DNA from: an uncultured Elusimicrobia bacterium
GTDB lineage: Bacteria; Elusimicrobiota; Elusimicrobia; FEN-1173
Length of the DNA stretch: 64,000 bases
NCBI GenBank assembly: GCA_964484135.1
Contig: CAZAEL010000002.1
Location: 4,700-68,699, forward strand
Direction of reading: 5' to 3'
Below the pieces are notes generated by a model. It was not told the origin of the DNA, did no database searches, and saw only the letters and a list, made by a program, of their open reading frames with translations. Numbering within the stretch: position 1 is the stretch's first letter; each line of letters starts with the position of its first letter. A program made the position numbers and the translations under genes. Positions 1 through 20,018 of the stretch are shown piece by piece.

Positions 1-3000
1 GAGGACGACACCCAGGCCGCGCTGGCGGCCACGCCCGAGCAAAAGAAGATGGTGCTGGTGAACCGCAACCTCATGCTCCTGGAAAAGCTGGCCGGCCACG
101 CCATGACCCCGGTGGACTGGCATTATTACGACGCCAAGCGGCCGGAGGTCCTGCGCGTCGTGCAGGACCTGGAGCAGATGGGCCAGTCCCTGGGCGACCC
201 CCTGTCCCTGGACGCGCCCCAAAACGTCCCGGCCATGCTGGAGCCCTTCGAGCAGTTCTGCCGGCGCGCCCTGGAACGCAACCGGGCCCTGGTGGACAAC
301 CTCCTACAAAAACTCAAGGAAAAGGCCGGCCCGTCCTCTCCCTCCGTGGCCGTGCTGGTGGCGGGCGGTTTCCACACGGACGGTTTGAGCCAGCTCCTCC
401 GGTCCAAGGACATTTCCTACGTGGTGGTGACCCCCAAAATCTCCGAGGTGCCCAAGGAGAGCAAATACCTGGACATCTTCGCCCACGATCCCCTGCCCCT
501 GGAGAAGCTCTTCGCCGGGGAGACCATCTATCTGGCCGCGGAGCGGCTCCTGGTGCTGGACGGGGCCCAGATCAAGTTCTCCCACACGCGCTTGAGCGCC
601 TTCCGGGGGTTGTACCGCATGTTCCAGCCCGCCCTCCAGGCCCTGTTCGAGGAGGCGGGGGAGGACATGGAAACGCTGCAGGAGAGCCTGAACCGGCAGT
701 CTTCCGAGGTTTCCGCGGCCCTGGGCGAAAAAGAGCTCAGGATCGAGATCGACCGGGACATCTCCCGCAGGGGGTTCTACAGCGTGCTCCGCTACTCCCT
801 GACCGCGGAGAACGGCGCCCCGGTCCGGGCCCAGCTGGCCGTCATGACCAAGGACAAGCTGGCGGCCGCCAAACAGTTCCTGGAGGAAGAGGGGATGCAG
901 GACGCGGTGCACGAGGCCGAGATCACCGTGGACGGGGAAACCTATGTGCTGGTCCTGTTCAAATCCTCGTCGATCACGGACACCCTGGCCGGCCACTGGG
1001 ACAAGTTCCGGGGTTGGCTGTCTCGCATGAGACCCTCCGCCGAAGAGAAACCCGGCGGGGCGGCGACGGCGGCCCTCACCGCGGAAGAACGGCTGACCCG
1101 CCTGGAAAAGAATCCGTTCATCCGAAGATATTTTCAGGCGGGATCGAACCACCGGGCGGTTTTCCAAGAAGCGTTGAAAGCCTTTTTCGACAGCGGCGAC
1201 CCGGAGGTCGCGGCCATTGCCCGGGAAGTGGAGGCTCTGGATCCCGCCGAAATTCTGTCACAGGCCCAGGCCATCATTGACGGCAAGGAGGCTCTCCGCA
1301 AATCCCCGGGCCAAACGATGACCCTTCGAGACCTCGCCCTGGCCGACACCAGCGGGGCGCAGGACCTGCATCAGTTGTTCAACTCCACCCTCTATATAGC
1401 CCAAAGCTACTTTGAAGATGCCGACATGAAGGGTGTGGAATTGAACGGCGAGGTGGCCTGGAAGACCACCTTCCGAGAAGGTCTCATCATCCTCCGGGCC
1501 CTGGAACAGCCGGCGGCCCCGGAGGCGGCGCCGGCGCCCTCCCGCGGACTCCAAGGCGCCCTTGACCGTGCCGGACAATGGGTCCGTTCCCTGGTCAAAG
1601 TCGACAACCTGCTGATCGTGATCTGGGGAGGAGGCCTGTTCCTGGCCGCCACCGCCCTGGCTTTCAACGCCCCTTTCACGGCGGAACTGGCGTCCTATTT
1701 GAGCGAAGCGGGCATGGCGGGGCGGTTCATGGAATTCTTCACGCTCCTGAAGTTCGCCCTGCCGGCCTTTCTGACCATCGGGCTGGCTTCCGTCCTCGTC
1801 CGCCGGGACATGGCCCGGGCGGACTCGGGTACGGAGGCGTCCGCGGAGAAGGAGCCTGGTCCCGGTCGGCTCGCCCGCCTTCTCGCCAGCCCGTCCTTCC
1901 TGCTGCTGGTCAGCGGCGGCCTTCTGGTCCTCAACATCTTCCTGCGGGCCGGCATCCTGGCGTACGTGGACTTCATGGGTTCCTTCGACGGGACGCCGAC
2001 GGTGGAGATGTTGTCCCAGTTTTCGGGCCAGGAGAGGCTCTTCCTGGAATTCTTCTTCCTGAAGCAGGGGTCTCCTTTCCTCCAGGCGATCTGGGAGCCC
2101 CTGAAGGCCGCGTCGTTCTTCTTTTTGAACGACCTCTTGAGCCTGACCTTCGTCGTTTCCGGCCTGCTCACGGCCGTGAAAAAACTTTTTTCGCCGGATC
2201 TTTACGCCCGGCTGTTCCGGAACAAGACCCTCCTTATGTCCATCCTTTTCACGCTTTACACCATGGTCTCCTGGGAGATCGGAATGGATTCGGGCGACAC
2301 GACCGTGTTCCTCTTCTCCTTCGTCGGGATGGCCCTGTGGCACGCCCTGGCCGGCCGGGTGGCGGCGCGCGCCGCGGCCGCCGCGTCCGACCGAGATCGG
2401 GAGGGGGCGTCGCGGCTGGGCCTCCCGCGGCTGGTCTCCGCCGGGCTGGGCATCCTCACGGTGTTCGCCTTCCTGTCCACGGTGTACACCATGGCGTCCC
2501 TGGGCGGTATCCCCATGCTGGGGGTCGTCCTTCCCCAGGCCGGCGGGTGGGCCATCCATCCCGAGGAGGTCGGGACCTTCTCGCAGTTCCTGTCCGACAA
2601 CCCGGCGCTGATCGTCCTGCCCCTCTTGTACGCCTTGAGCCGCGTGGTGGCGGGCCGGATGGAGGCGAAGGGCCGCGCAGCGGAACCGGCGGAGAAGAAG
2701 GAAGGGGAAGCCGGGACTTTTCTGGGGCTGTTCCTCATGATCCTCATGCCGGCGTCCGTGGGGCTCATGTCCGCGGCGCCCACATTCTCTGCGGGACTCT
2801 TATTGCCGGGGATCCTGGTGGCCGGCTTGGCGCTCGCCGCCCTGGCGGCGGCCTCCCTCACCCGGAAGCTGGCCCCCGGCGGCGCCGTCCTCCGGTCGGC
2901 CGTGGTCTCTTCGGGGTTGTTCGTCGCGCAGTATTTCTCGTTTCCCGTCCTGATCAACGCCATACAGGACCTCTGGAGCCGGATCTTCATCATCCAATTC

Positions 3001-6000
3001 AACATCACCGGTGGGCCCTTCGCGGCGGCGGCGGACACCGGGACCGCGCTCGTGGGGCCCGTGGGCGCGGCCGGATGGTTCGTGTCCGTGGTGGGGGTAT
3101 TCCTGGCCACATTCTTCGCGGTCCACTCGGTCATGAAGAAGTTCTCTTCCGGCCGCACGAAGGGGCGGGGTGCCGCCGAGCCGCCCGCGGCCCCCGGCTC
3201 CTGGTTCGGGGAAGATTACGAGCGGTTCGTGCTCGACCCGGCGCTGCGGGCCTTCTTCTCCCTGCACGCGCGGGTTTGGGACGACATGGTGGACTCTCTG
3301 GCCGGATGGGGGCTTAACCGGAACGCGGCCGAGGCCCTGCGGGCGGCCCAGGACATGGATGACGCGGTGGCCCTGCTTATGCCCCACATGGGGCTGTATG
3401 AGTTGACCCGACACGTGTTCGAGGCCGTTTCCGAGAGCGTCCACGCCAGCGCGGACGACAGGGAGTTCGGCGGCGACATCTCGGAAGCGCTTTCCGTCCT
3501 GGAACGGGAGACGGGGGTCGGGATCAATCCGGAAGACATTCAAATCGTGCGGGGCCCGCCCGTGGGGGCGGAGGGGGACAGGCTTTTGGGTTTCGCTGAG
3601 GATCAGACAGGGCGGCTAAAAATCCTTGTGAGCCCGGAGGTTCTGCGGGAGTTCCGGGACGGCGAGGAGACCCGCGACATCGCCCGCCGGCAAAACATTT
3701 CCCTTGAAGAGGCTTTCCGGGTCGTTTTGGTCCGCGCCCTCCTCCACGAGGTGCTGGAAACCGGCGGCATGTCCCACGAGAACGTGCAGCGCACCGGTTT
3801 CAGGACCGATGGTCTTGCAAGTCTGAATGAGATGGCCCGGATGTTCGCGCTCCTGCAGCGAACCGAATTGGGCCCTTTGCTCCGGGAAGGCGACGTGGGC
3901 GTTGACGTCCGGTTGTCCGATACCGAGGTGGAATCGGCCGTGGCCCTGCGCCGGGCGCTGGAGCTGGCCATTTTCAATCGCCGCTTGGGCCCTCCAGCTG
4001 ATGAGACCGACCGCAGAACCCGTGAGATCCTCGCCACCCACGTTGAGCTTGCCTACTTGGAGACGTTCCCTCCCGACCTTCGCGGGCAAGCCGCCGTTCA
4101 AAACGATTTGCTTGAAGAACTGCGTTCCCTCCGGGCCCAGGGCGCCACGGAGGAGGAGATCGCGCAAAGGATCGCCGAGGCTCTTGGCTTCGAAGACGCG
4201 GAGGCGGTCCGTAGGGCCGCCCGGATCCTGCCCATGGCCCTGCCCACCGAGGTCCTGCACACGCGAGGCGGCGACGGACGGTCCGCCATTGATCCCAAGA
4301 CCGGCAAAACGGCGTACGGCAACGCGGCCAAGCCCACGCCGGACGTGAAGGTCTATTCCAGTTCCACCAGCTCCCCGCCCACGCGGGAGGCTTTTGACCG
4401 TATGGAGCGGGTGCGCCAGGACCTCCTTGAGCGGATGCTTTCGAATCCGGGGGGGGTCGGGGCGTATTTCGAAGGCCGGATGGCGGACGTGCGGCGGCGC
4501 ATCCTGCAGGTCCTGGGATTGGAGAAAATGGCCGGAGTGACGGCCGTCACCACTCCCTCGGCCACGGACGTGGAGTTGATCCCTCTCATGATGGCGGCCA
4601 ACCGGGGGAAGCCTGTCAGGAACCTGGTGCTGACCGAAACCGGCAGCGGCACCAAACTGGCCGCCGGAGGCCTTTACATCGATGACCAGGCCCCGGATGG
4701 GACCACCGTCAAGGGACGCAAGGGCAAATCCATCCCCGGCTTCCCCGCGCAGACGACCCAAGTCACAGAGATGTCCGCGGACGCGTCCGACCTGGATCGC
4801 CAGGTGGAAGACTACGTCCGGGCGAACATCGGCGAGTCCACGGTGATCGTGCACCTGGTGGTGGATTCCAAGACGGGCCTGACCGCGCCCCAGTTCCAGA
4901 CCATCGCCAAGTTGTCGAAGGAATACGGAGACGACCTCATGGTCGTGGTGGACGCGGCCCAGGGCCGCATCGAGCCCCGTTTCCTGCAGGATTACCTGGA
5001 CAGGGGATGGATCGTGTTCTCCTCCGGCTCCAAGTTCTGGGGAGGGGTGCCTTTCTCCGGCGTCGCGGTCATCCCGGAACGGCTGCGCAAGGAATTCATG
5101 GGGTTGAAGGACGTTCCGGAAGGGCTTGGAGAATTCCTGACGGCCGCGGACTTGCCGGCGGACGTCCCATGGCGCGATAGGGCGGGCGGCTGGCGCAACG
5201 CGAGCCTTTTGCTGAGGTGGGAGGCGGCGCTTTTCGAGATGGAGGCGTTCCTGTACGGACAAGGGGAACAGGACGAGATCACGCGCGAGATCGTTTTGCG
5301 GGGCGTGATCCAGAGGTGGATGGACGGCGTTCGTGAATTGATGGACCGGAAAAAGGCCCGAACCGGGAGGCGGGACGCCGTGGAGTATAAGATGACCGGA
5401 CGCGGAAGCACCAACACCATCGTCTCTTTCAACGTGAAGGATCGCCACGGGAACAATTTGGCCCCGGCCCAACTGAAAAAGCTCCATGCGTGGCTGCACC
5501 AGGATGTCTCGGCGCTCTTGCCGAAAGGAGCGGCGGATTGGGAACGGGACGTGGCCGCCCGCAAATACCTCCTGGGACAACCCGTGGACCTGACGCCGCA
5601 GGAAAAGGATGAATCCATGAAGGACGGCGTCCTGCGCATCACTTTGGGGGCGCCTTTGGCCCGACAGTTGGCCGACCAGGCGGGGCCGGATTTGGACCAG
5701 GACCGCGTTGAGAAGGCGTTGGAGCAGGAGATGGAGGACGTTCGGGTGCTCCTGCTGAAGATACAGATGATCGTCCGCCGCTGGGACGCCGTCGAGAAGG
5801 CGGAAGAGGCCCGGCGTCCCCCTCAAACGGCCGCGGTCCCTGAACCGGTCCAATTCGTCAATCCCGCCGTTCCGCGGCCCTCCCGCGTGGACCGCGCCCC
5901 CGGACAGCCGACGATTGCCTGGGATTCGACGGAGCCGGCCGCGAAGGGGGCCGAGACGAAAAAGTCTCTGGCCCTTTTCCCAGAGGACGTTTGGGCGTTG

Positions 6001-9000
6001 GCCCCTTTTTCCCAGGCGCTGAGAGAAATGGGCATCGTCCAAGAGCCTGAGGATCTCGTCATCGCCGTCAGGGTCAATCAGCCGGGCCTGATTGACTTCA
6101 GGTTTTACGACAAGAGGGGCGTCTATATTGTGAACTTGCAGTTGAGCACGGAAGACGGCGGCCAAACCGCCTGGCTGGGTCACATTGAGCCGTCTTTCGT
6201 GAGGGCCAAGCTCAATTCGCTTCCGCCGGGCGAGCGGGAGGCTTTCCAGCAGCAATGGAGGGAGATGACCCAGGATTGGCTTTTGACACGGGTCAGGCCC
6301 TGGCTTCAAGGCCGTGGCTTCACGGAATGGCGGGTGAGGCCCAAGGCGGGGACTGAGCCGGGAAAGGGAGACGGTTTCCTTCTCGGCATTGGGTTCCAAT
6401 GGCCTCCCAACGGCGAATTGCATTTCATGTCCCAACGCTTGGAGGGGCCAACGGAGGCAGGCCAAGCTTTGGGCATGGCGGGGGGATTGGGTGGCCTGGC
6501 CAACCGGCTGGCCGCACGGACGGGCCGGCCCCTCCGGGATTTCATCCGGTTGTTCGCCCACGGCGAGGAACAGTTCATGGGACTTGTGTTCGTGGGTCTG
6601 ATCACCATCGGGCTGGGCGTTCTTTTCCACGCCATTGGACTTGATCCTTCCCTGCCGTTTCTGGCGCTTTTGTCCGGCTTTCCGGTGGCGCTTCGCCAGC
6701 CGCTTTTCCGTTTCTTACACCGGGGAGACCTTTACTTTGTGAAGGAAACGGAAGTCGGGACGGAATTGGTCCGCGGACCACCCACCGCGAAGCAGAGACA
6801 GCAATTGTGGCGCGCTTCTGGACGGTTCAGCGAAACATTTTTTGTAAGCACTCTGGTCTTATCCGGTGTTTTCCTTCTGTTCGACCTGCTGCTCCAATCC
6901 TACGGCATCTCCATCCACGCCCATGTGTGGTTCCTGGCGGCCGCGGCCCTGGCGGGCGTCCGCGCCGGCAGAACGCACGCCCGATACAACCTCTCCACCG
7001 AAGGTCCCCTGGCCGTCCCGACCGTGGGGACCGATAGAGATCTGTGGCCGCCGGACTTGACCCCCGACATGCCTGCCTCCGGGCTCATCCACGCCCTGTT
7101 CGATGGAGCTCCCATCCGGGATGTTCAGGATTTGTCCTCGTTCCCGGACGGCTCGCCCCTCAACGGGGCCACCCTTAAACGCGTCTCGATCGAGCCGTCC
7201 GGCCGCCTGCCGGCTTCCGGCCTGGAAACCCTCTACTATCAGCTCGGCATAGACAACAGGGACGGGACCAGCCATCTTCCCGAGGCGCTTGATTTGCTCT
7301 ATGACGACACGGGTCGTTTGGTCGCCCTGTTTCCCGTTTTTCCGGACGGAGAAACGCCTTCCATTCCCCTCGTCGATCTCGTCCATTATTACCACGACGC
7401 CCGCCTTCTGAAAGGGCTCTCGGGGTTGGGCCCCGATGAATTCAGAGAGCGGGTTGAGGAGATCAACCGGAGTTGGACGGAGTTCAGAAAGTCCACAAAC
7501 AGGGCGTTCATGACGATCAGGAGATACGTGGACGCCAAAAGATGGTCCGACCTCGTCTTCGACACGGCTCGAAACGCCCTCACGCATTCGGAGCATGTGT
7601 ACGCGCGTATCGATATCGCAAACGCCGATCGAGACATGGACATCGTCTCGGATATGTCGCCTTTGGGGAGTCGTTTGCGGTATTCCGAGAACGGCCACCA
7701 GGTGTTGTTCCCGGTTTTTCCCACGGTGTATTCCCCGGAGAAATACAGCAACCAGAGCAACGACGACGGTTTTTACCGCGCCCTCCTGGGAAAAACCAAG
7801 GCGCGTTTCAACATCAATCCGGACGAGGATTCAAAGACGTTGGTGGTCGGCACCGGTTCCGGGATGGATTCCCTGATCGCGGCCCTCCAGACCAAGGGAG
7901 AAATTTGGGTGACGGACATCAATCCGTTCGCGGTCGAGAGCGTGCGCCATCTCTTCCGGCTGGCCGGGATCGAACACCGTTTGCGGACGTTCGTGATGGA
8001 CAACGTGGCCGACGAGCGCGGCAACCCCCGCCTTCTGGACGGGGACGGTCGCCCGGTGCAATTCGATCGCGTCGTCTGGAACATGCCCATCCATTCCGCC
8101 CGGCCTATGGAGAGGAAAGACATGAGGCGGGCCAGGGGTCTTTGGGACGGGGTCGGGCCGGAGGTCCTCCAGCGGTTCGCGGGGGTCCTGCCTCGCATCC
8201 TCAAAACGGACGGAATGGCTTTGGTGTGGAACCATGACGTGATGGACAATCTCGGCAACAATGAGGTGGAGATGGCGTTCCGGACCGCCGGGAGCTATTT
8301 GGGCCTTTCTCCCGAGGCCAGAGAAACCCGAGGTCCCTTCTTGAGCGATACTTTGTCTTTCCCCATGGCGGTTGAGCGCATCGGACAAAGGGAGTTGGGG
8401 TCCAACGGCAAGTTCCCGCCTTATGTCATCAAGCACGCGACGGCCGAGGGACGGGAAGACGCGGAGCCGGTGAAAGATGAAATGCTCCTGAATTACGCCC
8501 GCAGAGCCGCATTGACGCAGGACGATTACGAAAAACTGATCAGGACGGGCAGAGAGGACGTTATGCTGGCGTTGGCCGAGCGGGCCGACGCGCCGGAATG
8601 GGTCCTCCGGGACCTCGCCGGGGTGGGCGGAAAGAAACTGATGTCCATGTTGTGCAAGCACCCGTCCCTGCCGCCGGACGTCCTGCTTGACATGGCCCTG
8701 CGGGGAGAGCCGTTTGTCAGGACCATGTCCATGTCCTCGCCGGCGGCGACTTTCGCCTCGCTGTTGGTCGTCCATGCGTTGGGCGGGCAGGCCGGTTTCA
8801 AGGAGGCCAAAGACGTTATTCCCGATGAGAAGCGTTACGGGGCTTTGGGGGACCTCCTGTTGCGGTTGAGCGGGCCGCTGACGCAGGCGCTCAGCGGTTT
8901 GCCCGAGGCCCAACGGTCGTGGGGCAACATCCCGCCCAACGTGAAAGCGGAATTGGAAGAATTGTTGCGGCTTGAACCGGTCTTCCAGGCCGCCGCGCGG

Positions 9001-12000
9001 TTGCCGGCGGACCGATGGAAGAATTTCGGCTCAACCGGAAATTTGGGCCAAGATTTGTCGAAGTTAACGGCGTTCGTCGAGATTTCCGGCGGCGGGCAGC
9101 ACCCCCTGGGACAGGACGATTTCACGACCCAGGAGAAGGAGGAACTGCTGAAAAACGCCTGGCAGTCCGGCGCGCGGTTCCTGGCCGACGACGAGTCCTT
9201 CCGCGCCGGCCTGGCATCGGAGGTTCGGGATATTTTGATGGCGGAGCCGGGATCGCCGGCGGAGCCGGTCCTCTCTCTGCCGCAGATGCGGGAGTCCGTT
9301 GAAGCCTTGATGGATTATCTGCGGCAAGGGCCGGGCGCGCCCGTGACCATCGGGGGCCGGGCCTACGACGTCCGGTTCCATTACACGCGGGACGCCGCGC
9401 CTTTCCGCACGGCCTCGGGCCGCGAGGCCGGCGCCTTCACGGCCATCGATGGGAACACCATCCACGTCTACGCGCGGGACCTGCCGGGCCTCCTGCACGA
9501 AAGCCTGGAGTTCCTGGTCTTCCCGCAGAACGCGGCCGTCTCCAACGATCGTCGTCAACATCACACCCTGGCGTTCTTCGCGGAAGCCCTGGTCAGGGGC
9601 GCTCCGGTCCGCGGGGGCGTGGCCATGCCCGGACGGGCTTTCCGGGAAGTGGACAGGATGACGGACGAGGCCGTCCTGCGCGGCTTCGTGGAGGGGTACG
9701 AGGCGGCCCGCGCCCAGTTGCGGGAGAAATTCTCCGGGCAACCCGAGTACCTCCGATACGGCCTGACCCTGGCCGAGGCCATGCATTCGCGGGCCCGGCG
9801 CAACGCGGAGGACCTGGCCGAGTCGCAAGAGATTTTCGACAGGTTCATGGACAATCTGCGCGGGATCCAGCCGGGCCAGCCGGCCTACGAGGAGGCCCAG
9901 AAGCTCCTGCGGTTCCGGGAGCAGTTGACGACCGAAACGGCGGTGTTGAGCACCGCCTTGTCCGCGGCCCGGCATTTCCACGGCGACATCCAGAGCATGG
10001 GGTTGGAGGACGTCCTGGGCAACACCAGGAACTGGTTGGAGGTCTTCGACGAGGAGTTGAACCGGGCCAGCATGATCTCGGCCCGATCGGCCGCCGGGCT
10101 TCGGATGCGAAAAGACATCCGGGAGGTCCTGATGACGGACGGGGCCGCCGTCCTGTCCATGCATTATTTGCGGGAGAGGTGGCGGAGCGGGGACATCGAC
10201 CGGGACGTCATGGACAGCCTCTTCACTTACACGTGGCAGGATTGGTTCCAGTCCCGGACCGACGACAGAGACCTCCGCGCCCGGTTCGGGCGCATCCTGC
10301 GGGAGGTCAAGTTCTCCGTGTCCCTTCGCCGGACCATGGCCAGGGTGCTCTATCCGAGGCATGGCAGGATCGTGCGGGTGACGCCTTTGGACGGAGAAGC
10401 GCTTCGGGGACGGCGGCGTCTTTTCGTTTCCACGAAGGACCTGCTGTCTTTGCAGAGCGCCCTGCGGATGTTGAACGCCCTGGTGGACATGTTGGACCCG
10501 GGGAAAATCAGGGCGGGAGACCGGTTCGTGGTCTATGAACTGCCCGGCGCCGGGACGGACGGCCTGGGGATCAAGCAGCAGAACGATGTGTTCGGCTATG
10601 AGCTGGCCAACAACCTGATCCAGATGAGGCGTGAAAAACTGAAGGCCCTCATGCAGGAGGAGTTCGGGGGCCGGGTGACCCTGGTGATGCCCATCTACGA
10701 CAATTTCAAGGAGAACACTTTCGACCTCCGCATGGAGGTGACGGGATCCCTTTCTTCCGTGCAGATGCGGGAGGGATTGGACCGCGTGCGTCAAAGGCTC
10801 AGGGCCGAAATGACGGAGGAGATGCGCCGGGGACGGTTCCGCGAGGCCCTGGCCGCCAAACGGGATCTCTTGAGGTCCTACGGCATCACGGACATCGACG
10901 CGCAGAACCTGTTCGAGGTGCGCTTCGGCTTCGCGGACGTGGCCGAGGCCACGGACGAAGAACGCCTGGCCGCGGACATCCAGGCCCATCAAGCCATGAA
11001 TTTCGAAGAGCAGGAATACAGCCGGGAAGCTTACGAGGGGCTCATCGGCAACTTGACGCGTCTGAGCGGGGAACTGGAGCGGGAGGCGCCGGGCATCTTC
11101 CGTCCCGTCCAGGACCCGGAGCTGGGGGAAGAACTGGTCCTGCGGGACGAGGTGGTGACGCACCTGCGGAAACAGCACGCCTGGGAAGATCTGCCGGCGG
11201 CGGACAGGGCCCTTTTCCGGGACGATCCGCGCGTATACCGTCTGGCGGGGGAGCTCTTCCGGCGGCTCAAGATCCAGGACTACATCAAGAAATGGAACCT
11301 GGACTTCGCCACGGCCGCCGACGAGGCCGCGGTCGTGCGTGAGGGCGTTCAATCCCTCTCCCTCTTCGCCGAGGCTCACCGTGACCGTGAGATGCTTCCG
11401 GACAAGGCGGTCAAGCCGCTGCGGGGCATCTTCAGGAAAACACAGCGTTACCTGTGGGGAGACCCCAAGAACCGGAGGGCCACGAGCGTCCACGGGTTCC
11501 ATTCGGCGGCGCCCTTCATGTCGCGGCCCGTTTACATCAACATCGACGTCCGGAACATGGGCGGCATGAACATCACCCAGTTCCAGCTGGAGGTCAAACG
11601 GATCAAACGGGCGCTGGACCGGGGCGACTGGGAGGAGGTTTCCCGCATTCAAAGGAGCGCCGCCGACGAGGTGACGCGGAACTTCCTGCGGATGCAACAG
11701 ATCGTGGCCGAGGAATACCAGCGCGTCCGGGAGGCCCATCAGGCGGCCGGCAAACCCTCGGACCAGCTCGTGGACGGTTCGCGGATGGTCCTGGCCGACG
11801 GGCGGATGTTGAAGGGAAGGGAGCTGGCCGAATACCTGAAGACGCATCCGGGCGCGGGCCAGCCTTTGGTGTCCTTGGTCGGGGGAGACGAGTACACGGC
11901 CGTGGTGGACGGACGCCTCCTCAAGGGCCGGGCCTTGTATGAATTCCTCTTCCGTGTGCGAGACCGGATCAGGGAGGAGGCCCACATCGACATCCGATTG

Positions 12001-15000
12001 AGCGTCTCGGCCCTGGCGCCTTTCTTCCGCTACAAGCATTTCCGCCGGGGGCACCTGGCCGATCACTTGGCCCACGCGGAGGTCATCCTCCGGGCCGACG
12101 ATCAGACCGATGTCTTGAAGAAGGCCGAAAAGCTTCGCCAGCAGGGGCATAACGTGCCGGACATGATCGTGGTGGACGGGCTGGATGAGTCGGGGGAAGA
12201 GCCGATCCGCTTCGGGATCGTCCAGGGGCGGAAAGGACAGCCGGTCCGGTATGACCTTGCTCCGGTTCTCCAACAGGCCGCCATCCGTCCCCGGCAGGCC
12301 ATGGCCGCCTTCGCGGCCGCCACCCTGCCGGCGGGGCTGCTGTTGGCCTTGTCCGCGGGCCTCCAGTTGCTCACGGGCCAGGCCCTGGACGTGGCGGCCC
12401 TTATACCGATCCTTCTGGCGCCGGTGTTCCTGATGGCCCTGGTCTGGCTGGCGTCCGCCCTGGGCTGGGCGGCCAAGGCCCTGGGCATCCGGGCCGGGCC
12501 CGTGGATGCCGCTCGTCTGGTTCCCTTCCTGCAAGAGGCCCAGGACGACCCTTCCGTGGCCTTCTTCGAAGTCCAAAACGGCGTGCTCAAGGTCAATCCC
12601 GCGGTCAAAAAGTTCCTGTCCCTCCTTCCCCAACCGGTTCAAAACCTGATTTTGTACGGTCTCGGCATCGTGGGCCACGAGGTGTCCCACCTGCAGGGAC
12701 ACGGCGAGCTTTACGCGTACGGCCTGACGCAAATCGTCCCGGCGTTTGTTGGCGCGATGTTGTTCGGCTTGGCCGGGGTTTGGATCGCTGGCATGTTTGG
12801 CCTTTCTGCGGTTTTTGCCGCCGTCTTTATAGGAGTGTTTGGCGTGGCAGGGGCTGTGGCGGCGGTGGGGATCGTCAGTTGGGCCATGATGCGCCATCGG
12901 TTAACGGCCGGGAACGCGGATTTTTGGTTCAAAAAGTCCCTCACGGACAAGCCTGAACTCACCGTCAGGCAATGGACCTATGAAATCCTTTTTGAGAGGG
13001 CCAAGGAAAAGCTCGCGGAGATGGCGGACACCTTCAGGCACCCGAAAAAGGCTTTCCGTGAGCTGGTGAAACGGGCCAAACGGGAAGGGGCTCCTTTCGT
13101 CATTTACGCCGTGACCATTGAGGTTCTGGAAGATGTGGTGCTGCCCTTCTTGTTCCCTTCTTTGGCCGCGTTCTTTTTGATATTTCACTCGGAGCCCATC
13201 ATGTATCCGCTTTATTTCGTTGTGAGAAAGTTATTGAGGGGCCGGATGGCCGAGGACGAATTCCATCGGTATTTCCGGGAGGCGGAGGAGGAGATGCGGG
13301 AGGAGGCGTCGCTTGCCCGGAAATGGCGTTTTGGGGTCGAGTTGAAGGAGAGGCTGACGCTGGCCGATATCTTGAAATACAACCGAGCGAAGCTGGCTTC
13401 GGATCATTCGGAGGACGCGTCCTCCACGCTCACCCGCGTCGGCGAAAGGGAAACGGCTGCCAAAACCATAGGCAGGCTCTTGAGGAAAAGCCGGGTGGCG
13501 GAGCCAACCAAGGACGAAGAAAGGGAGGCGGTGGATTCTTTGGTGGATCGGATGCGGAGCGATCCGGATCCCTGGGTCCGGAAAACCGCCGCCGGCGCCC
13601 TTGGCAAGATTTTGGACCCCCGAACCATCGGACCGCTGCAAATGGCCCTGATCCAAGGCGATCCCGCGGTCCAAGGGGCGGCGGCCCGCTCCCTGGGTGC
13701 CTTTGGCCGTGATGCGGCGGACGCGCTTCCGCAACTGCTGCTTTTGGCTCAGACGCACAGAGACATGTGGATCCGGGTCTATTGCCTGACCGCCGTGGGG
13801 CTTATTGCAAGTGAAACAGGCGACGCCCCTGGGGACATCATCGAAATCGTCCTTGCTCAGGCCGGAAGCCGGGACCACCCCGTGCGTGTGGCCGCCGTGG
13901 AGGCTTTGGGAAGATTGAGGACCGCCGATCCGCGTGTGAAGGGAGCTCTGGCAGAGGCGTTAAAAAGCCCTGATCCCACCGTGTATGAGCTCGCCCTGTG
14001 GGGCCACGTCCGAAAATTTATGAACGGCGATGGAACTTTCACCGATGGGGAAATCATCGATGCTTTGGAGGAGGCATTGCGGAGCTCCGATTCCAAGGCC
14101 AGAGGTTTTGCCAGGCGGGTCCTCCATCATAGGTTCCATTACAACCGGAAGCAACTGGAATCCCTCGAAAAGACGGCGGCTCTGTCGACGGTGACAGGGT
14201 TCCGGTTTGTCGTGGCGGACGATCCGGCAGAGGCCGCCCGTCTGGCTCAGACCCTTCAGGAAGACGGCGCCAACACCGTGCTTTGGGCCGGCGATTTTCG
14301 TCGTACTCGCAGCGAGACGCCCTTGGACGATGGGGGTCGCCTCATCCTGGGGGCCAATTTGGACGAAGAGGCGGTCCGTTTCAAGTTCGGAAGGATCAAG
14401 GAAGGCTTGGCCATCCGTCTGCCTATGCTGGACGAGTCCAGGGGCAAACGGGCGCGGGAACGCTCCGTCGTGCCGCGTGGCACCGTATATGTTGTGGGAA
14501 ACTCCAACGAGATTGGACAACTGGGGACGCTCCTTCGGAAACAAGGGATATACCCGACTCTCCGCGCGGCCCGCGTGGAGACGACGTCCCAGCAAAGCAG
14601 GCGACGGATATTTCGGGACGTCCTCCGGCAAATTGTCATCGGCCAGGACCAAGTCCGGCCCTGGACGCCGTACGTGGACCGGGGCTGGGTCCACCGGGTC
14701 AAAGTGGAGCCGCTGGATCAAGACCGGGACGGCTTGCATGGGGCGTTCCAAGACTTCACCGGGACGCGGCAGAGGGCATTGGAAGCGCAACAGCCCGCGG
14801 CGGTATCCACCGAGGCGTCCTATGAACAGTTTTTGGCGTTGATATCGGCAAATCAGATCAACGATGCGGAGTTGGTAAGGTTGGCCACGGACGCCATGTT
14901 GCAGGGCGCCGACATCCGGGACGTGATCGCCCACCGGCTCGCCAATCGCGCGTTCCAAGGGCTGGAGGGCCGGAACCTGAGCACCGCGGATCTGGAAGGG

Positions 15001-15768
15001 CTTGCCGCGCTCCTGGCCCTGTTGCACGGTCTGGGCGGGTCGGTCATGCAATCCTGGGAAACGTCGGACCGGGAACAGGGCCTGACCCCGGCCCAGCGGG
15101 CCGAGTATCAACGGTTGGACTGGGAATGGTTCGTCCAAATCCCGGTCTTGATGGGCCGCGACAACTTTGCGGAAATTGAGCAGGCGTACAACGCGGCGCG
15201 CCGTCGGGTGCTGGCCTCGGGCCTGGATTCGGCCTTCCACGCTCTGGACCAGGCCCTGGCCGTGGACGGGCCCGTGGCGGTGGAGGTGTCGGAGCGCCTG
15301 CTGGGCGAGGACCTGACGCCCCAGGAAGAGTCCACCCTCCATCTTTTGAGGGGCCTGTTCGCGCGGCTTTCGGAAGACCCCGAACTTCTGGCCCGCAAAC
15401 AGGTGGTCCTCGTGGCGGACGGCTGGAAACGGGGGGACATGCTCGCGGCCCTGGCGGAGCGGGCCGGGTTGGGGCCAGTGGTCGCGGCCCGCCTGCGGGA
15501 AGCGGCCGGCATCCGGACCCTGGACGCCCGCGCCGAAGGGGCCATGGCCGGCGACAGGATTTCGGTCCAAGCGGTCATGCGGCTCCTGCGCATGGGCAAA
15601 AACCAGGGAATGGACATCTTCGCCATGGACCAGAAGAATTGGGACACGACCGGCGTGGAGCACCTGGTGAACCTGCTCCTGGTCCTGTCCGGCGACCTGG
15701 TGAAGAACGCCGCCTCCGGCATCGGGGAGGCCATCGAGAAGATGGAGTTCATAAAAATACAGGCGTAG
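1..15768 (+). CDS. Giant multidomain membrane protein, 5'-partial (at least 5,255 aa within window; first in-window Met at 49; stop TAG 15766-15768)
   Basis: Single uninterrupted frame of 15.7 kb with no in-frame stop from position 1. All recognisable domains (TM modules, PLP-fold, MTase, GGDEY, HExxH, HEAT) lie in this same frame, so it is not a GC-driven artefact. Confidence 0.85.
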   Translation, partial: EDDTQAALAATPEQKKMVLVNRNLMLLEKLAGHAMTPVDWHYYDAKRPEVLRVVQDLEQMGQSLGDPLSLDAPQNVPAMLEPFEQFCRRALERNRALVDNLLQKLKEKAGPSSPSVAVLVAGGFHTDGLSQLLRSKDISYVVVTPKISEVPKESKYLDIFAHDPLPLEKLFAGETIYLAAERLLVLDGAQIKFSHTRLSAFRGLYRMFQPALQALFEEAGEDMETLQESLNRQSSEVSAALGEKELRIEIDRDISRRGFYSVLRYSLTAENGAPVRAQLAVMTKDKLAAAKQFLEEEGMQDAVHEAEITVDGETYVLVLFKSSSITDTLAGHWDKFRGWLSRMRPSAEEKPGGAATAALTAEERLTRLEKNPFIRRYFQAGSNHRAVFQEALKAFFDSGDPEVAAIAREVEALDPAEILSQAQAIIDGKEALRKSPGQTMTLRDLALADTSGAQDLHQLFNSTLYIAQSYFEDADMKGVELNGEVAWKTTFREGLIILRALEQPAAPEAAPAPSRGLQGALDRAGQWVRSLVKVDNLLIVIWGGGLFLAATALAFNAPFTAELASYLSEAGMAGRFMEFFTLLKFALPAFLTIGLASVLVRRDMARADSGTEASAEKEPGPGRLARLLASPSFLLLVSGGLLVLNIFLRAGILAYVDFMGSFDGTPTVEMLSQFSGQERLFLEFFFLKQGSPFLQAIWEPLKAASFFFLNDLLSLTFVVSGLLTAVKKLFSPDLYARLFRNKTLLMSILFTLYTMVSWEIGMDSGDTTVFLFSFVGMALWHALAGRVAARAAAAASDRDREGASRLGLPRLVSAGLGILTVFAFLSTVYTMASLGGIPMLGVVLPQAGGWAIHPEEVGTFSQFLSDNPALIVLPLLYALSRVVAGRMEAKGRAAEPAEKKEGEAGTFLGLFLMILMPASVGLMSAAPTFSAGLLLPGILVAGLALAALAAASLTRKLAPGGAVLRSAVVSSGLFVAQYFSFPVLINAIQDLWSRIFIIQFNITGGPFAAAADTGTALVGPVGAAGWFVSVVGVFLATFFAVHSVMKKFSSGRTKGRGAAEPPAAPGSWFGEDYERFVLDPALRAFFSLHARVWDDMVDSLAGWGLNRNAAEALRAAQDMDDAVALLMPHMGLYELTRHVFEAVSESVHASADDREFGGDISEALSVLERETGVGINPEDIQIVRGPPVGAEGDRLLGFAEDQTGRLKILVSPEVLREFRDGEETRDIARRQNISLEEAFRVVLVRALLHEVLETGGMSHENVQRTGFRTDGLASLNEMARMFALLQRTELGPLLREGDVGVDVRLSDTEVESAVALRRALELAIFNRRLGPPADETDRRTREILATHVELAYLETFPPDLRGQAAVQNDLLEELRSLRAQGATEEEIAQRIAEALGFEDAEAVRRAARILPMALPTEVLHTRGGDGRSAIDPKTGKTAYGNAAKPTPDVKVYSSSTSSPPTREAFDRMERVRQDLLERMLSNPGGVGAYFEGRMADVRRRILQVLGLEKMAGVTAVTTPSATDVELIPLMMAANRGKPVRNLVLTETGSGTKLAAGGLYIDDQAPDGTTVKGRKGKSIPGFPAQTTQVTEMSADASDLDRQVEDYVRANIGESTVIVHLVVDSKTGLTAPQFQTIAKLSKEYGDDLMVVVDAAQGRIEPRFLQDYLDRGWIVFSSGSKFWGGVPFSGVAVIPERLRKEFMGLKDVPEGLGEFLTAADLPADVPWRDRAGGWRNASLLLRWEAALFEMEAFLYGQGEQDEITREIVLRGVIQRWMDGVRELMDRKKARTGRRDAVEYKMTGRGSTNTIVSFNVKDRHGNNLAPAQLKKLHAWLHQDVSALLPKGAADWERDVAARKYLLGQPVDLTPQEKDESMKDGVLRITLGAPLARQLADQAGPDLDQDRVEKALEQEMEDVRVLLLKIQMIVRRWDAVEKAEEARRPPQTAAVPEPVQFVNPAVPRPSRVDRAPGQPTIAWDSTEPAAKGAETKKSLALFPEDVWALAPFSQALREMGIVQEPEDLVIAVRVNQPGLIDFRFYDKRGVYIVNLQLSTEDGGQTAWLGHIEPSFVRAKLNSLPPGEREAFQQQWREMTQDWLLTRVRPWLQGRGFTEWRVRPKAGTEPGKGDGFLLGIGFQWPPNGELHFMSQRLEGPTEAGQALGMAGGLGGLANRLAARTGRPLRDFIRLFAHGEEQFMGLVFVGLITIGLGVLFHAIGLDPSLPFLALLSGFPVALRQPLFRFLHRGDLYFVKETEVGTELVRGPPTAKQRQQLWRASGRFSETFFVSTLVLSGVFLLFDLLLQSYGISIHAHVWFLAAAALAGVRAGRTHARYNLSTEGPLAVPTVGTDRDLWPPDLTPDMPASGLIHALFDGAPIRDVQDLSSFPDGSPLNGATLKRVSIEPSGRLPASGLETLYYQLGIDNRDGTSHLPEALDLLYDDTGRLVALFPVFPDGETPSIPLVDLVHYYHDARLLKGLSGLGPDEFRERVEEINRSWTEFRKSTNRAFMTIRRYVDAKRWSDLVFDTARNALTHSEHVYARIDIANADRDMDIVSDMSPLGSRLRYSENGHQVLFPVFPTVYSPEKYSNQSNDDGFYRALLGKTKARFNINPDEDSKTLVVGTGSGMDSLIAALQTKGEIWVTDINPFAVESVRHLFRLAGIEHRLRTFVMDNVADERGNPRLLDGDGRPVQFDRVVWNMPIHSARPMERKDMRRARGLWDGVGPEVLQRFAGVLPRILKTDGMALVWNHDVMDNLGNNEVEMAFRTAGSYLGLSPEARETRGPFLSDTLSFPMAVERIGQRELGSNGKFPPYVIKHATAEGREDAEPVKDEMLLNYARRAALTQDDYEKLIRTGREDVMLALAERADAPEWVLRDLAGVGGKKLMSMLCKHPSLPPDVLLDMALRGEPFVRTMSMSSPAATFASLLVVHALGGQAGFKEAKDVIPDEKRYGALGDLLLRLSGPLTQALSGLPEAQRSWGNIPPNVKAELEELLRLEPVFQAAARLPADRWKNFGSTGNLGQDLSKLTAFVEISGGGQHPLGQDDFTTQEKEELLKNAWQSGARFLADDESFRAGLASEVRDILMAEPGSPAEPVLSLPQMRESVEALMDYLRQGPGAPVTIGGRAYDVRFHYTRDAAPFRTASGREAGAFTAIDGNTIHVYARDLPGLLHESLEFLVFPQNAAVSNDRRQHHTLAFFAEALVRGAPVRGGVAMPGRAFREVDRMTDEAVLRGFVEGYEAARAQLREKFSGQPEYLRYGLTLAEAMHSRARRNAEDLAESQEIFDRFMDNLRGIQPGQPAYEEAQKLLRFREQLTTETAVLSTALSAARHFHGDIQSMGLEDVLGNTRNWLEVFDEELNRASMISARSAAGLRMRKDIREVLMTDGAAVLSMHYLRERWRSGDIDRDVMDSLFTYTWQDWFQSRTDDRDLRARFGRILREVKFSVSLRRTMARVLYPRHGRIVRVTPLDGEALRGRRRLFVSTKDLLSLQSALRMLNALVDMLDPGKIRAGDRFVVYELPGAGTDGLGIKQQNDVFGYELANNLIQMRREKLKALMQEEFGGRVTLVMPIYDNFKENTFDLRMEVTGSLSSVQMREGLDRVRQRLRAEMTEEMRRGRFREALAAKRDLLRSYGITDIDAQNLFEVRFGFADVAEATDEERLAADIQAHQAMNFEEQEYSREAYEGLIGNLTRLSGELEREAPGIFRPVQDPELGEELVLRDEVVTHLRKQHAWEDLPAADRALFRDDPRVYRLAGELFRRLKIQDYIKKWNLDFATAADEAAVVREGVQSLSLFAEAHRDREMLPDKAVKPLRGIFRKTQRYLWGDPKNRRATSVHGFHSAAPFMSRPVYINIDVRNMGGMNITQFQLEVKRIKRALDRGDWEEVSRIQRSAADEVTRNFLRMQQIVAEEYQRVREAHQAAGKPSDQLVDGSRMVLADGRMLKGRELAEYLKTHPGAGQPLVSLVGGDEYTAVVDGRLLKGRALYEFLFRVRDRIREEAHIDIRLSVSALAPFFRYKHFRRGHLADHLAHAEVILRADDQTDVLKKAEKLRQQGHNVPDMIVVDGLDESGEEPIRFGIVQGRKGQPVRYDLAPVLQQAAIRPRQAMAAFAAATLPAGLLLALSAGLQLLTGQALDVAALIPILLAPVFLMALVWLASALGWAAKALGIRAGPVDAARLVPFLQEAQDDPSVAFFEVQNGVLKVNPAVKKFLSLLPQPVQNLILYGLGIVGHEVSHLQGHGELYAYGLTQIVPAFVGAMLFGLAGVWIAGMFGLSAVFAAVFIGVFGVAGAVAAVGIVSWAMMRHRLTAGNADFWFKKSLTDKPELTVRQWTYEILFERAKEKLAEMADTFRHPKKAFRELVKRAKREGAPFVIYAVTIEVLEDVVLPFLFPSLAAFFLIFHSEPIMYPLYFVVRKLLRGRMAEDEFHRYFREAEEEMREEASLARKWRFGVELKERLTLADILKYNRAKLASDHSEDASSTLTRVGERETAAKTIGRLLRKSRVAEPTKDEEREAVDSLVDRMRSDPDPWVRKTAAGALGKILDPRTIGPLQMALIQGDPAVQGAAARSLGAFGRDAADALPQLLLLAQTHRDMWIRVYCLTAVGLIASETGDAPGDIIEIVLAQAGSRDHPVRVAAVEALGRLRTADPRVKGALAEALKSPDPTVYELALWGHVRKFMNGDGTFTDGEIIDALEEALRSSDSKARGFARRVLHHRFHYNRKQLESLEKTAALSTVTGFRFVVADDPAEAARLAQTLQEDGANTVLWAGDFRRTRSETPLDDGGRLILGANLDEEAVRFKFGRIKEGLAIRLPMLDESRGKRARERSVVPRGTVYVVGNSNEIGQLGTLLRKQGIYPTLRAARVETTSQQSRRRIFRDVLRQIVIGQDQVRPWTPYVDRGWVHRVKVEPLDQDRDGLHGAFQDFTGTRQRALEAQQPAAVSTEASYEQFLALISANQINDAELVRLATDAMLQGADIRDVIAHRLANRAFQGLEGRNLSTADLEGLAALLALLHGLGGSVMQSWETSDREQGLTPAQRAEYQRLDWEWFVQIPVLMGRDNFAEIEQAYNAARRRVLASGLDSAFHALDQALAVDGPVAVEVSERLLGEDLTPQEESTLHLLRGLFARLSEDPELLARKQVVLVADGWKRGDMLAALAERAGLGPVVAARLREAAGIRTLDARAEGAMAGDRISVQAVMRLLRMGKNQGMDIFAMDQKNWDTTGVEHLVNLLLVLSGDLVKNAASGIGEAIEKMEFIKIQA
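1597..3130 (+). other. Giant protein: membrane module 1 (about 10 predicted hydrophobic helices)
   Basis: Runs of 18-25 hydrophobic residues (e.g. LLIVIWGGGLFLAATALAF, FLLLVSGGLLVLNIFLRAGILAYV, LIVLPLLYALSRVVAG, FLGLFLMILMPASVGLMSAA) separated by short charged loops. Confidence 0.5.
4500..5300 (+). other. Giant protein: PLP-dependent aminotransferase class V-like (cysteine desulfurase/SufS-like fold) domain
   Basis: Motifs STVIVHLVVDSKTG, LMVVVDAAQG and IVFSSGSKFWGG (S-x-S/H-K with candidate PLP-lysine, aag near 5031) in the order and spacing of fold-type I class V enzymes. Confidence 0.45.
6580..6990 (+). other. Giant protein: membrane module 2 (3-4 hydrophobic helices)
   Basis: FMGLVFVGLITIGLGVLFHAIGL, FLALLSGFPVAL, FFVSTLVLSGVFLLFDLLLQ, VWFLAAAALAGV. 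Confidence 0.4.
7790..8110 (+). other. Giant protein: HemK/PrmC-like class I SAM-dependent methyltransferase domain ((D/N)PPY-type)
   Basis: Motif I LVVGTGSGMDSLIAAL (7841-7870), acidic residue VTDINPFA, FDRVVWNMPIH (NPPY-like motif IV, about 8080-8095), with spacing typical of N5-glutamine/N6-adenine methyltransferases. Confidence 0.5.
11500..11930 (+). other. Giant protein: degenerate GGDEF-like (nucleotidyl cyclase palm) domain with GGDEY
   Basis: VYINIDVRNMGGMN (resembles the D-x-D-x-F-K-x-x-N-D region), then about 95 aa later PLVSLVGGDEYTAVVDG (GGDEY at 11881-11895). Confidence 0.3.
12290..13230 (+). other. Giant protein: membrane module 3 containing an HEVSH (HExxH) motif
   Basis: Hydrophobic helices (LPAGLLLALSAGLQLL, LIPILLAPVFLMALVWLASALGW, VPAFVGAMLFGLAGVWIAGMFGLSAVFAAVFIGVFGVAGAVAAVGIV, VVLPFLFPSLAAFFLIF). 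GIVGHEVSHLQGHGE at 12676-12690 is a zincin-like HExxH placed between helices, as in intramembrane/site-2-type metalloproteases. Confidence 0.4.
13540..14010 (+). other. Giant protein: HEAT / PBS-lyase-type repeats (at least 4)
   Basis: Repeating DP-x-VR-x-A-A-x-x-ALG units: DPWVRKTAAGALGKI, DPAVQGAAARSLGAF, HPVRVAAVEALGRL, DPTVYELALWG. Confidence 0.55.
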
Positions 15769-15794
15769 CCGCTTTTTTGTCTTTCCGTCGGTAT

Positions 15795-15823
15795 TTGACC
15801 GTCCCACCGCCATTTTGTACACT
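15795..15823 (+). promoter_or_regulatory. Candidate sigma70-type promoter for thyX: TTGACC(15795-15800)-17 nt-TACACT(15818-15823)
   Basis: Near-consensus -35 and a 17-nt spacer in the 124-nt gap between the giant gene and thyX. Confidence 0.4.

Positions 15824-15892: not shown

Positions 15893-20018
<4,126 letters not shown>

Follow-up and report, generated by a model that had tools for sequence, protein, structure and literature searches.

We discuss here a stretch of 64,000 nucleotides (the window) from an uncultured Elusimicrobia bacterium, contig CAZAEL010000002.1, whose first 15.8 kb are occupied by the 3′ part of one giant gene; its product is a multi-pass membrane protein with several enzyme-like modules. 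Frame 1 is open from nucleotide 1 to 15765, i.e. for 5,255 codons, and closes with a stop at 15766–15768; no other frame comes near this length, and the next longest open stretches of the window, whose GC content is 65%, reach about 1,100–1,300 codons. Given the base composition, 5,255 codons would stay free of stops by chance with a probability of about 1e-60. The GC content at third codon positions (GC3) is 0.69–0.92 versus 0.37–0.49 at position 2 in every 900-nt block, and the flanking housekeeping genes display the same pattern. Because GC3 is high in all blocks, the entire frame looks like real coding sequence.

The beginning of the gene was recovered by an exhaustive HMMER search, in which residues (aa) 2900–4099 of the product were compared with 1.84 billion representative proteins. 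One of these, P0069 (5,695 aa), was retrieved at 100% identity over its positions 3340–4539, and its residues 441–5695 are the window product, residue for residue. The gene is therefore truncated at its 5′ end by just 440 codons; the window holds 92% of it, and residue n of the window product is residue n+440 of P0069. A first-pass annotation of the same DNA had announced a protein above 5,255 aa with no start in the window, whose true N-terminus was to be sought: the size is confirmed, the N-terminus lies 440 residues beyond the window, and all the motifs then quoted are present in the translation. P0069 comes from a single 99,415-bp NCBI contig, which also encodes the guaA, purD, purB, IMPDH-family, carB and flavin-reductase products of the window. 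Two other searches gave no matches: a word-index search with aa 1081–2150, which also missed P0069 itself, and a metagenome scan with aa 1–1000.

One may ask whether errors in assembly or sequencing joined several ordinary genes into a single frame, or whether the frame is the remnant of a pseudogene. P0069 is represented by one metagenome-type contig only and forms a singleton cluster at 90% identity, and no close full-length homologue was found. However, 15.8 kb stay free of stops with a uniform coding GC3, and each fused gene would have needed a frame-preserving loss of both its stop and its start. Moreover, independent contigs from other samples hold the same core modules in open reading frames (ORFs) of 2,000 to more than 6,000 aa, and the N-terminal and central modules follow each other in the same order in five relatives. 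We consider an artefact very improbable: the window gene is a genuine single gene for a giant multi-pass protein.

Nor does this protein resemble the giants built of repeats. Self-comparison, relaxed settings included, revealed no internal repeats in the window product, no repeat, adhesin or toxin matches came from Pfam, NCBIfam or PADLOC, and both regions that were modelled are alpha/beta enzyme folds. Only the size and a signal-like N-terminus speak for one of the known giant adhesin or polymorphic-toxin families (RHS, hemagglutinin, Ig-like, RTX). Such a membership is barely credible, and we regard it as effectively refuted; the absence of Ig/RHS/hemagglutinin-type repeats had been correctly perceived in the earlier reading. 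The features of the gene and of its immediate downstream gap are collected in Table 1.

Table 1. Features of the giant gene and of the gap that follows it (window coordinates; residues in window numbering unless stated).
Feature	Position (nt)	Residues (aa)	Strand	Basis
Giant gene, 3′ 15.8 kb	1..15768		+	Open frame, GC3, identical P0069
Family N-domain, C-terminal end	1..504	Whole domain: P0069 ~150–608	+	BLAST/phmmer, alignment A5
Hydrophobic cluster 1, ~12 transmembrane helices	1609..3129	537–1043	+	Kyte-Doolittle scans
Fold-type-I PLP-dependent enzyme module	4291..5910	1431–1970	+	AlphaFold2 and Foldseek
Hydrophobic cluster 2, two helical hairpins, ~4 transmembrane helices	6574..6966	2192–2322	+	Kyte-Doolittle scans
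Class-I SAM methyltransferase-like module, HemK/MTS type	7813..8250	~2605–2750	+	PADLOC mad2; sub-threshold NCBIfam/Pfam
Small conserved module, LLHESLEF ... HHTLAFFAEAL	9076..9828	~3026–3276	+	phmmer/BLAST
Family-defining tandem-palm GGDEF-like module	10258..12300	3420–4100	+	Model, motifs, relatives
Hydrophobic cluster 3, ~5–6 transmembrane helices	12301..13224	4101–4408	+	Kyte-Doolittle scans
HEAT/PBS-lyase-type repeats	13444..13965	~4482–4655	+	Pfam
C-terminal ~535 residues without annotated similarity	14158..15765		+	No Pfam, NCBIfam or PDB-sequence matches
Sigma-70-like promoter match TTGACC-17-TACACT, giant gene/thyX gap	15795..15823		+	Consensus scan only

The three hydrophobic clusters, previously placed at about 1.6–3.1, 6.6–7.0 and 12.3–13.2 kb, are all found again by the Kyte-Doolittle scans, which give aa 531–1043 for the first. 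Their helices were parsed by hand, with no predictor output, as 12 + 4 + 6, which makes about 22 transmembrane (TM) helices in total. With this parse, the lysines and arginines of loops and flanks are distributed 32:5, 13:0 and 31:0 between the two sides of clusters 1, 2 and 3 respectively, the richer side being that of all the large soluble regions; on the opposite side the loops of clusters 2 and 3 are just 1–3 residues long. Following the positive-inside rule, loops rich in these residues mark the cytoplasmic side. The charge bias and this rule together place the enzyme modules in the cytoplasm, so that the pyridoxal 5′-phosphate (PLP), methyltransferase, palm, HEVSH-loop, HEAT and C-terminal regions would all be cytoplasmic if the manual parse is right. 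Such a location fits with the need of the modules for PLP, S-adenosylmethionine (SAM) and nucleoside triphosphates. The number of strongly hydrophobic segments, 17, sets P0069 apart within its family, the relatives having 0–4.

For the PLP module the fold is established by structural modelling. The AlphaFold2 model, built on 43 sequences, has a pLDDT of 88.5 and a pTM of 0.88, and Foldseek gave it more than 1,000 matches in the PDB at E ≤ 1e-3. Every one of the 50 listed is a fold-type-I PLP enzyme, the top ones being Egt2/EgtE-type C-S lyases, CsdA cysteine desulfurases, group-II decarboxylases and 2-aminoethylphosphonate transaminase. The motifs HLVVDS, VVVDAAQG and SGSKF are found at aa 1618–1680. 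They provide a putative ligand of the pyridine nitrogen, Asp1651 in VVVDAAQ (nt 4951–4953), and a putative Schiff-base lysine, Lys1678 in SGSKF (nt 5032–5034), both placed in the active site from the motif pattern and not from coordinates. Asp1651 (of DAAQ) and Ser1677-Lys1678 are invariant in 43/43 sequences, as are the Q and the SGTD motif. The 27 residues that separate the Asp from the Lys fit the class-V pattern, and we take the DAxQ and S-x-K motifs to be equivalent to those of IscS/CsdA. Compared with the class-V aminotransferases, C-S lyases, desulfurases and group-II decarboxylases (8iry, 4lw4, AADC, GAD), the module thus has the same fold (Foldseek E ~3e-12, probability 1.0) but an identity of 12–16% only. 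It is invisible to Pfam, Aminotran_5 included, as are its stand-alone relatives, and for the module itself no match appears even at E ≤ 1; the profile of the PLP family gave nothing meaningful against PDB sequences. A class V aminotransferase or cysteine-desulfurase-like module had been proposed at this place. The fold and the key residues agree with it, but the module contains no cysteine at all, which excludes a desulfurase mechanism: the persulfide-accepting cysteine of IscS, SufS or CsdA is absent, and we reject this assignment.

Proteins related to this module also exist on their own. A genome scan with aa 1401–2000 found eight stand-alone ORFs of 425–604 aa (27–36% identity), in Bacteriovoracaceae, Duganella, Asticcacaulis, Caulobacterales and Burkholderiales, whose alignment contains the invariant motifs SGTD, ETGSG, SKTG, DAxQxR, GSKF and RWEAALFEM; the profile of this alignment retrieved 68 further proteins of 330–750 aa, all labelled “hypothetical”. 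These proteins, at least 68 in number, make up by themselves a new candidate family of enzymes. A stand-alone PLP gene lies directly upstream of an Orn/DAP/Arg-type decarboxylase gene in a Bacteriovoracaceae (L001:9707–12749) and in a Lacipirellulaceae (L011:3743–8115), where it is also downstream of an ATPgrasp_ST gene. These decarboxylase and ATP-grasp neighbours hint at an amino-acid or polyamine-related chemistry for the stand-alone family, and the genes may form a small-molecule biosynthetic cassette.

The module that defines the family is the GGDEF-like one, pointed out earlier by its VGGDEY motif (aa 3960–3965). In its second half, Asp3849 and Asn3857 lie eight residues apart in IDVRNMGGMN, and GGDEY follows at aa 3961–3965 (nt 11881–11895). 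In the alignment of 10 relatives (A4), the G, G, D and E of the signature, Asp3849 and Asn3857 are invariant or at least 90% conserved and a downstream Arg is also kept; the fifth residue of the signature varies over the family between F, Y, V, L, I and C. We take Asp3849 and Asn3857 to be equivalent to D327 and N335 of PleD. The first half is degenerate: the corresponding segment, at aa ~3514–3533, reads LPGAGTDGLGIKQQNDVFGY, and it keeps a “K..ND..G(Y/H)” element while its metal-binding Asp is gone in most relatives. The conserved motifs of the module are FExPGxGxxGLGxKxLND..GY, DINAHQA, LRxQDYIKKW, PVYxxxDVxNMGxMN, AADxVT and (M/L)GGDE(F/Y/V/L/I/C). Pfam GGDEF (PF00990) has no match in aa 3001–4100 even at E ≤ 1, whereas the control gene at 31469–32755 scores 6e-44, and the palm region gave nothing meaningful against PDB sequences and profiles. 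At the level of fold, on the other hand, the model has the beta-alpha-alpha-beta-beta-alpha-beta succession of the cyclase/polymerase palm. Its high-probability local Foldseek matches are single GGDEF or cyclase domains; its longest alignments are with Cas10/Csm1 and soluble adenylyl cyclase, with TM-scores of only 0.14–0.20. A palm domain with the key residues is thus recognized at the fold level, though Pfam GGDEF does not match it, and the chain apparently carries a degenerate palm followed by an active-looking one, an arrangement and an activity that the model and the conserved residues suggest.

The methyltransferase is less clear. VVGTGSG (the GxGxG motif I) and WNMPIH are found within aa 2615–2698. 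PADLOC mad2 matches aa 2605–2741 at 5.2e-10, NCBIfam HemK2/MTQ2 (TIGR00537) at 1.2e-5 but with 25.1 bits for a cut-off of 87, and Pfam MTS (PF05175) with 14.2 bits for a cut-off of 23; PrmA is also sub-threshold (aa ~2608–2701). All the models of the specific curated HemK/MTS families are below their cut-offs, and nothing meaningful was found against PDB sequences and profiles. An alignment with the methyltransferase modules of the relatives P0072 and P0075 was unconvincing past motifs I–II and was left unused. The module has in common with HemK/PrmC, MTS-type enzymes (RsmC/RlmG-like) and mad2 the Rossmann-type SAM fold, the GxGxG motif I, an acidic residue that closes strand 2 (TDIN here) and N-x-P-x-H at the place of motif IV; it differs by scores far below the cut-offs and by NMPIH (aa 2694–2698) in place of NPPY or NPPFH. 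Of the usual motif, Asn and one Pro remain, Met standing for the central Pro and Ile for the aromatic residue. We regard a HemK/MTS-like methyltransferase as plausible but weakly supported, as a call at the fold and family level; for the (D/N)PPY class formerly attributed to it, the sequence offers NMPIH.

The remaining parts are of unequal value. HEAT is the sole confident Pfam call in the window product (HEAT_2 5.6e-24, 84.7 bits for a cut-off of 27.7, in three stretches; HEAT 38.5 for 23.5; HEAT_EZ and HEAT_PBS as well). The repeats had been announced as the end of the protein, but about 600 unannotated residues follow aa ~4655. HEVSH, at aa 4226–4230 (nt 12676–12690), does lie between TM helices, in an 81-aa loop of cluster 3, and had been counted among the enzyme-like modules. 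It is the only HExxH in the 5,695 residues, at least one occurs in 12% of shuffles, and the region has no peptidase match in Pfam, NCBIfam or PDB sequences. We rejected a zincin protease (M48/M50/M56-like) as an established module, the lone motif being compatible with chance: its inter-helix position is suggestive, the peptidase claim unsupported.

Which of these parts belong to a family? The HMMER search gave 25 proteins at E ≤ 1e-3, and 17 of them besides P0069 (P0070–P0086, 667–7,864 aa) hold a palm module of ~480–650 aa, with E from 1e-21 to 1e-98. By BLAST and unfiltered phmmer, P0069 has only three stretches in common with other proteins: the N-domain, the palm module and the small module. 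The N-domain is common to P0072, P0075, P0079, P0081 and P0083 (E 1e-14 to 1e-52), with QDAH, EGG and GGFH as invariants, the last of which (VLVAGGFHTDG) is at window aa ~120–131 and the two others upstream of the window. It has no PDB sequence match, and no Pfam match when the N-terminal 640 aa of P0069 are scanned; a TraB/GumN/ChaN-like domain, considered by eye for its GxxH motifs, could not be supported. The small module, which may be a metal-binding site, is also found in stand-alone proteins of 268–828 aa (P0087, P0089, P0090, P0092 and P0093), with which it shares the motifs LLHExLEF and H(T)LAFFAE. In P0089 it is followed by what looks by eye like a MidA-like methyltransferase, and a similar motif, LLHEVLE, is present at aa 1249 of the window product.

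In metagenome contigs, the palm module is always inside ORFs of 1,107 to more than 6,096 aa, in DNA of 37–52% GC (65% in the window). What surrounds it differs, and the cargo that Pfam does recognise is varied and of cytoplasmic type: Pfam finds essentially nothing in P0072, P0075 and P0081, and the 7,864-aa relative (P0079/P0094, L017:2–18286), which starts with a signal-like segment, carries Methyltransf_28 (9e-45; MidA-type), a HATPase_c-like domain, sigma-70 regions 2 and 4 and a GT2 glycosyltransferase. On these sequence comparisons, we consider the N-domain and the palm module as the conserved core of a sparse, uncharacterised mosaic family of 0.7–7.9 kaa, and the remainder as lineage-specific cargo. 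A word-index search with the palm alignment A4 returned no matches although members are present, which reflects a limitation of the index and not an absence. The first-pass annotation, which recognized no characterised family, was right on this point, but the protein is not unique, two of its modules being common to this mosaic family; the search for homologous giant ORFs that it recommended did find relatives and metagenome contigs with the palm module.

Taken as a whole, P0069 may be an inner-membrane-tethered, cis-acting multi-enzyme or signalling megaprotein, a reading to which we give about as much credence as doubt. The three helix bundles (~12 + 4 + 6) would anchor the soluble modules at the membrane, on its cytoplasmic side, in the order N-domain, PLP enzyme (apparently intact in its catalytic residues), methyltransferase, small module, tandem palm of ~650 aa, HEAT and unannotated C-terminus. 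The second palm would convert a nucleoside triphosphate to a cyclic or linear (oligo)nucleotide product, with the degenerate palm as its pseudo-dimer partner, as in Cas10 or in the C1-C2 adenylyl cyclases. Small molecules or proteins kept close by would be the substrates of the PLP and methyltransferase modules, and the HEAT repeats would provide a scaffold for protein binding. The enzymatic or signalling megaprotein proposed at first thus keeps its giant size, its membrane embedding and its enzyme-like modules; its HEVSH module is unsupported, a desulfurase is excluded, motif IV of the methyltransferase reads NMPIH, and the HEAT repeats do not form the end of the protein.

Several observations weigh against a membrane-tethered enzyme of this kind. 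The Pfam GGDEF, Aminotran_5 and methyltransferase models are all below threshold, and in the methyltransferase, besides the NMPIH of motif IV, motif I lacks the usual acidic residue. The model of the palm module was built from 10 sequences only, and Foldseek with the whole module found no match at E ≤ 1e-3; it is from the motifs and from the succession of secondary-structure elements that two palms in tandem are deduced. The helix boundaries were set by hand. The hydrophobic segment at the N-terminus of P0069, MIKSLNSLFIAKEIVRAVRGRGR-AAFCVALAGAYLFSNVVGAHA-AES, signal-like when judged by eye and flanked by basic residues on both sides (six before, five after), resembles a Sec signal, and the segments of the relatives are clearer. 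Were it cleaved, the N-domain would be outside the cytoplasm; this conflicts with an even 12-helix cluster 1 having both ends inside, because the stretch before the first helix is also on the side rich in lysine and arginine. Finally, the extreme cysteine depletion described below, six purged positions included, is unexplained by a purely cytoplasmic location.

Part of these objections would also suit a largely non-catalytic membrane scaffold, in which degenerate pseudo-enzymes act as binding or sensor domains and organise envelope or membrane complexes. Many degenerate GGDEF domains serve as binding or sensor domains. All curated enzyme models being sub-threshold and motif IV reading NMPIH go in this direction, as do the GGDEF signature, which ends in Y here and in V, L, I or C in relatives, the metal-binding Asp missing from the first palm in most relatives, and the HEAT repeats and long helical regions, typical of scaffolds. 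Nevertheless the D, N, GGDE and R of the second palm are kept in 10/10 aligned relatives, and the PLP module retains all family-invariant positions (SGTD, D, Q and S-K) at ~70% divergence and despite the purging of its cysteines, which argues for selection on catalysis. A mere scaffold therefore seems to us unlikely.

The composition of the protein brings another kind of evidence. P0069 contains 5 cysteines in 5,695 aa (0.09%) versus 1.05% in 15 neighbouring genes (binomial P ~5e-20); the content is 0–0.6% in 11 relatives, and zero in those of 5,536 and 7,864 aa. By contrast 68/68 stand-alone PLP relatives contain cysteine (median 1.7%), so that the scarcity is not inherited from the module families. 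Six columns of the PLP alignment have a cysteine in 40–80% of the relatives where the window has N, S, V, A, S and Y, all catalytic-type positions being kept. Some relatives have in addition short lineage-specific motifs, in many more copies than chance predicts: R[AST]E[TV]R is counted 14 times in P0079 versus 0.04 expected, [AGS]SLG 13 times in P0070 versus 0.52, and RSELR/RSEVR-type motifs 3–5 times each in P0072, P0075 and P0083 versus at most 0.08. Such a punctuation is present in P0070, P0071, P0072, P0075, P0079 and P0083; its motifs are spaced domain-length apart and tightly bracket the palm module, e.g. at 224 and 870 around a module at 233–859 in P0070. From their sequence and spacing they look like polyprotein processing sites or linkers. 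In P0069 they are at chance level (1 versus 0.85 expected), and a reduced-alphabet scan that recovers those of P0079 and P0070 detects none in it. The giant-protein literature that was searched mentions neither the cysteine depletion nor the punctuation. Three properties of the family are thus new to this literature, i.e. the avoidance of cysteine, its purge in a conserved enzyme module and the boundary motifs of the relatives.

These properties would be understood if the family consisted of exported, possibly processed multi-effector polyproteins, targeted to Sec, devoid of cysteine for unfolded export, and whose modules act in the cytoplasm of another cell after release at inter-domain motifs in the manner of MARTX; the hydrophobic clusters of P0069 would then be insertion or translocation segments. 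Cysteine scarcity is typical of the passengers of type I secretion system (T1SS)/RTX proteins and autotransporters. In the present family it is near-general, it affects the PLP columns while the catalytic residues are kept, and it goes with signal-like N-termini in P0069, P0072, P0075, P0079, P0081 and P0083, with few or no TM segments in the relatives, with over-represented motifs that bracket domains, and with a cargo (sigma-70 factor, methyltransferases) that would be useless in the periplasm. P0069 itself, however, has no punctuation, and its ~22 strongly hydrophobic helices with a positive-inside pattern are typical of a stable inner-membrane protein. Furthermore, no secretion-system genes adjoin downstream, where the neighbours are those of nucleotide biosynthesis, no toxin, RTX, cysteine-protease or translocation domain was detected by Pfam, NCBIfam or PADLOC, and the cleavage of P0069-family proteins is a proposal only. 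Export of P0069 is for us the main alternative, but a doubtful one.

A broader version can be formulated for the family. P0069 and its relatives could be unrecognised Sec-targeted, cysteine-free “polyproteins” that concatenate cytoplasmic proteins around the N-domain and palm core and are exported unfolded or delivered to another cell. Their cargo would comprise PLP enzymes, methyltransferases, kinase-like ATPases, glycosyltransferases and a sigma-70 factor; RAETR, RSELR and GASLG would be processing or recognition sites, and P0069 would be a derivative in which TM bundles replace the punctuation. We would be rather surprised if all of this were correct, and for P0069 we keep the membrane-tethered megaprotein as the working interpretation.

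Few parts of microbial genomes are as poorly understood as giant bacterial genes, most of their length being unannotatable. In P0069, evidence at the level of fold resolves about 1,500 “dark” residues into PLP enzyme and GGDEF-like double-palm modules that can be tested. Nor does P0069 stand alone: in its family the core is conserved and the cargo can be exchanged. The purge of cysteine and the punctuation give handles on where and how such giants work, whether each as one assembly tethered to the membrane or as polyproteins that are processed or exported.

As regards the surroundings, the downstream genes thyX, purA, carA, carB, RNR (ribonucleotide reductase), IMPDH-family, guaA, purL, purF, purD and purB bear out that the giant gene is immediately upstream of a nucleotide-biosynthesis cluster. 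They belong to an unusually dense same-strand run at 15893–54326, which includes a flavin reductase and a class-II-like RNR with a TSCPD domain; the genes of a VWA protein and of a GGDEF-CBM48 protein (31469–32755) and an unannotated 341-aa ORF (20032–21057) break this run. The thyX ORF (15893–17578) encodes 561 aa with two Thy1 (PF02511) stretches, and so appears tandem or duplicated, versus the usual ~250 aa. A promoter had been placed between the giant gene and thyX; the sequence match exists, as a consensus match only, and a weak terminator-like hairpin (15761–15774) overlaps the stop codon of the giant gene. Between the IMPDH-family gene and guaA, a low-GC island (34400–35300, 0.36–0.47 versus 0.65) contains a single 271-aa ORF (34451–35266, + strand), which overlaps the start of guaA by 4 nt and has no Pfam or PADLOC match; the island is probably a horizontally acquired insertion. 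The window contains no rRNA gene. Since a TonB-dependent receptor and an ATPase of the type II secretion system/type IV pilus kind are encoded in it, the host should be a diderm bacterium.

How does P0069 compare with known systems? The canonical GGDEF diguanylate cyclases (PF00990; PleD, DgcZ, ImcA) work as homodimers, whereas here a degenerate palm stands ahead in the same chain, which suggests a pseudo-dimeric arrangement unlike the c-di-GMP-making GGDEF dimer; the window module has in addition an insert of ~70 residues between helix 1 and the GGDE hairpin. A pairing of two palms in one chain recalls Cas10 (Csm1/Cmr2) and the pseudo-heterodimeric class III adenylyl cyclases (soluble adenylyl cyclase, C1-C2 of the membrane enzymes). 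The global superposition on these proteins is nonetheless poor, as the low TM-scores given above indicate, the inter-palm linker is here a long helical region unique to the palm family and not that of the two-palm cyclases, and the HD domain, zinc finger and CRISPR context of Cas10 are absent.

MARTX toxins are very large, cysteine-poor, modular arrays of enzyme domains that act in the cytoplasm. They are an analogy for the export alternative only: the relatives of P0069 share with them short motifs repeated between domains, as possible processing sites, but RTX repeats, a cysteine-protease domain and T1SS genes were not seen, and P0069 has stable-looking TM bundles and no such motifs.

The closest resemblance in general design is with the giant multi-enzyme membrane-associated proteins described in Omnitrophota and other bacteria of the PVC group (West-Roberts et al. 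2023, Nielsen & Lui 2026; bioRxiv 10.1101/2023.11.21.568195, bioRxiv 10.64898/2026.06.07.730766). In these works an “SP+TM” class makes up 39% of the giant-protein catalogue, and GGDEF, methyltransferase and decarboxylase-type domains are frequent in proteins largely invisible to Pfam. Neither paper speaks of the QDAH/GGFH N-domain with its palm core, of a depletion in cysteine or of punctuation motifs, and the text of Nielsen & Lui 2026 does not mention cysteine, cleavage, linker or GGDEF. SecA_DEAD, C39, dockerin and TSP3 domains were not found in P0069, which is encoded in DNA of 65% GC. On the other hand P0069 is like these giants by its length of more than 5,000 aa, its signal-like N-terminus (by eye) and many TM helices, its divergent enzyme domains, its HEAT scaffolding and the absence of a dominant repeat. 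As they form a descriptive class and not a homologous family, it is by description that P0069 fits among them, and by this analogy we see in it a variant of the multi-enzyme giants of Omnitrophota.

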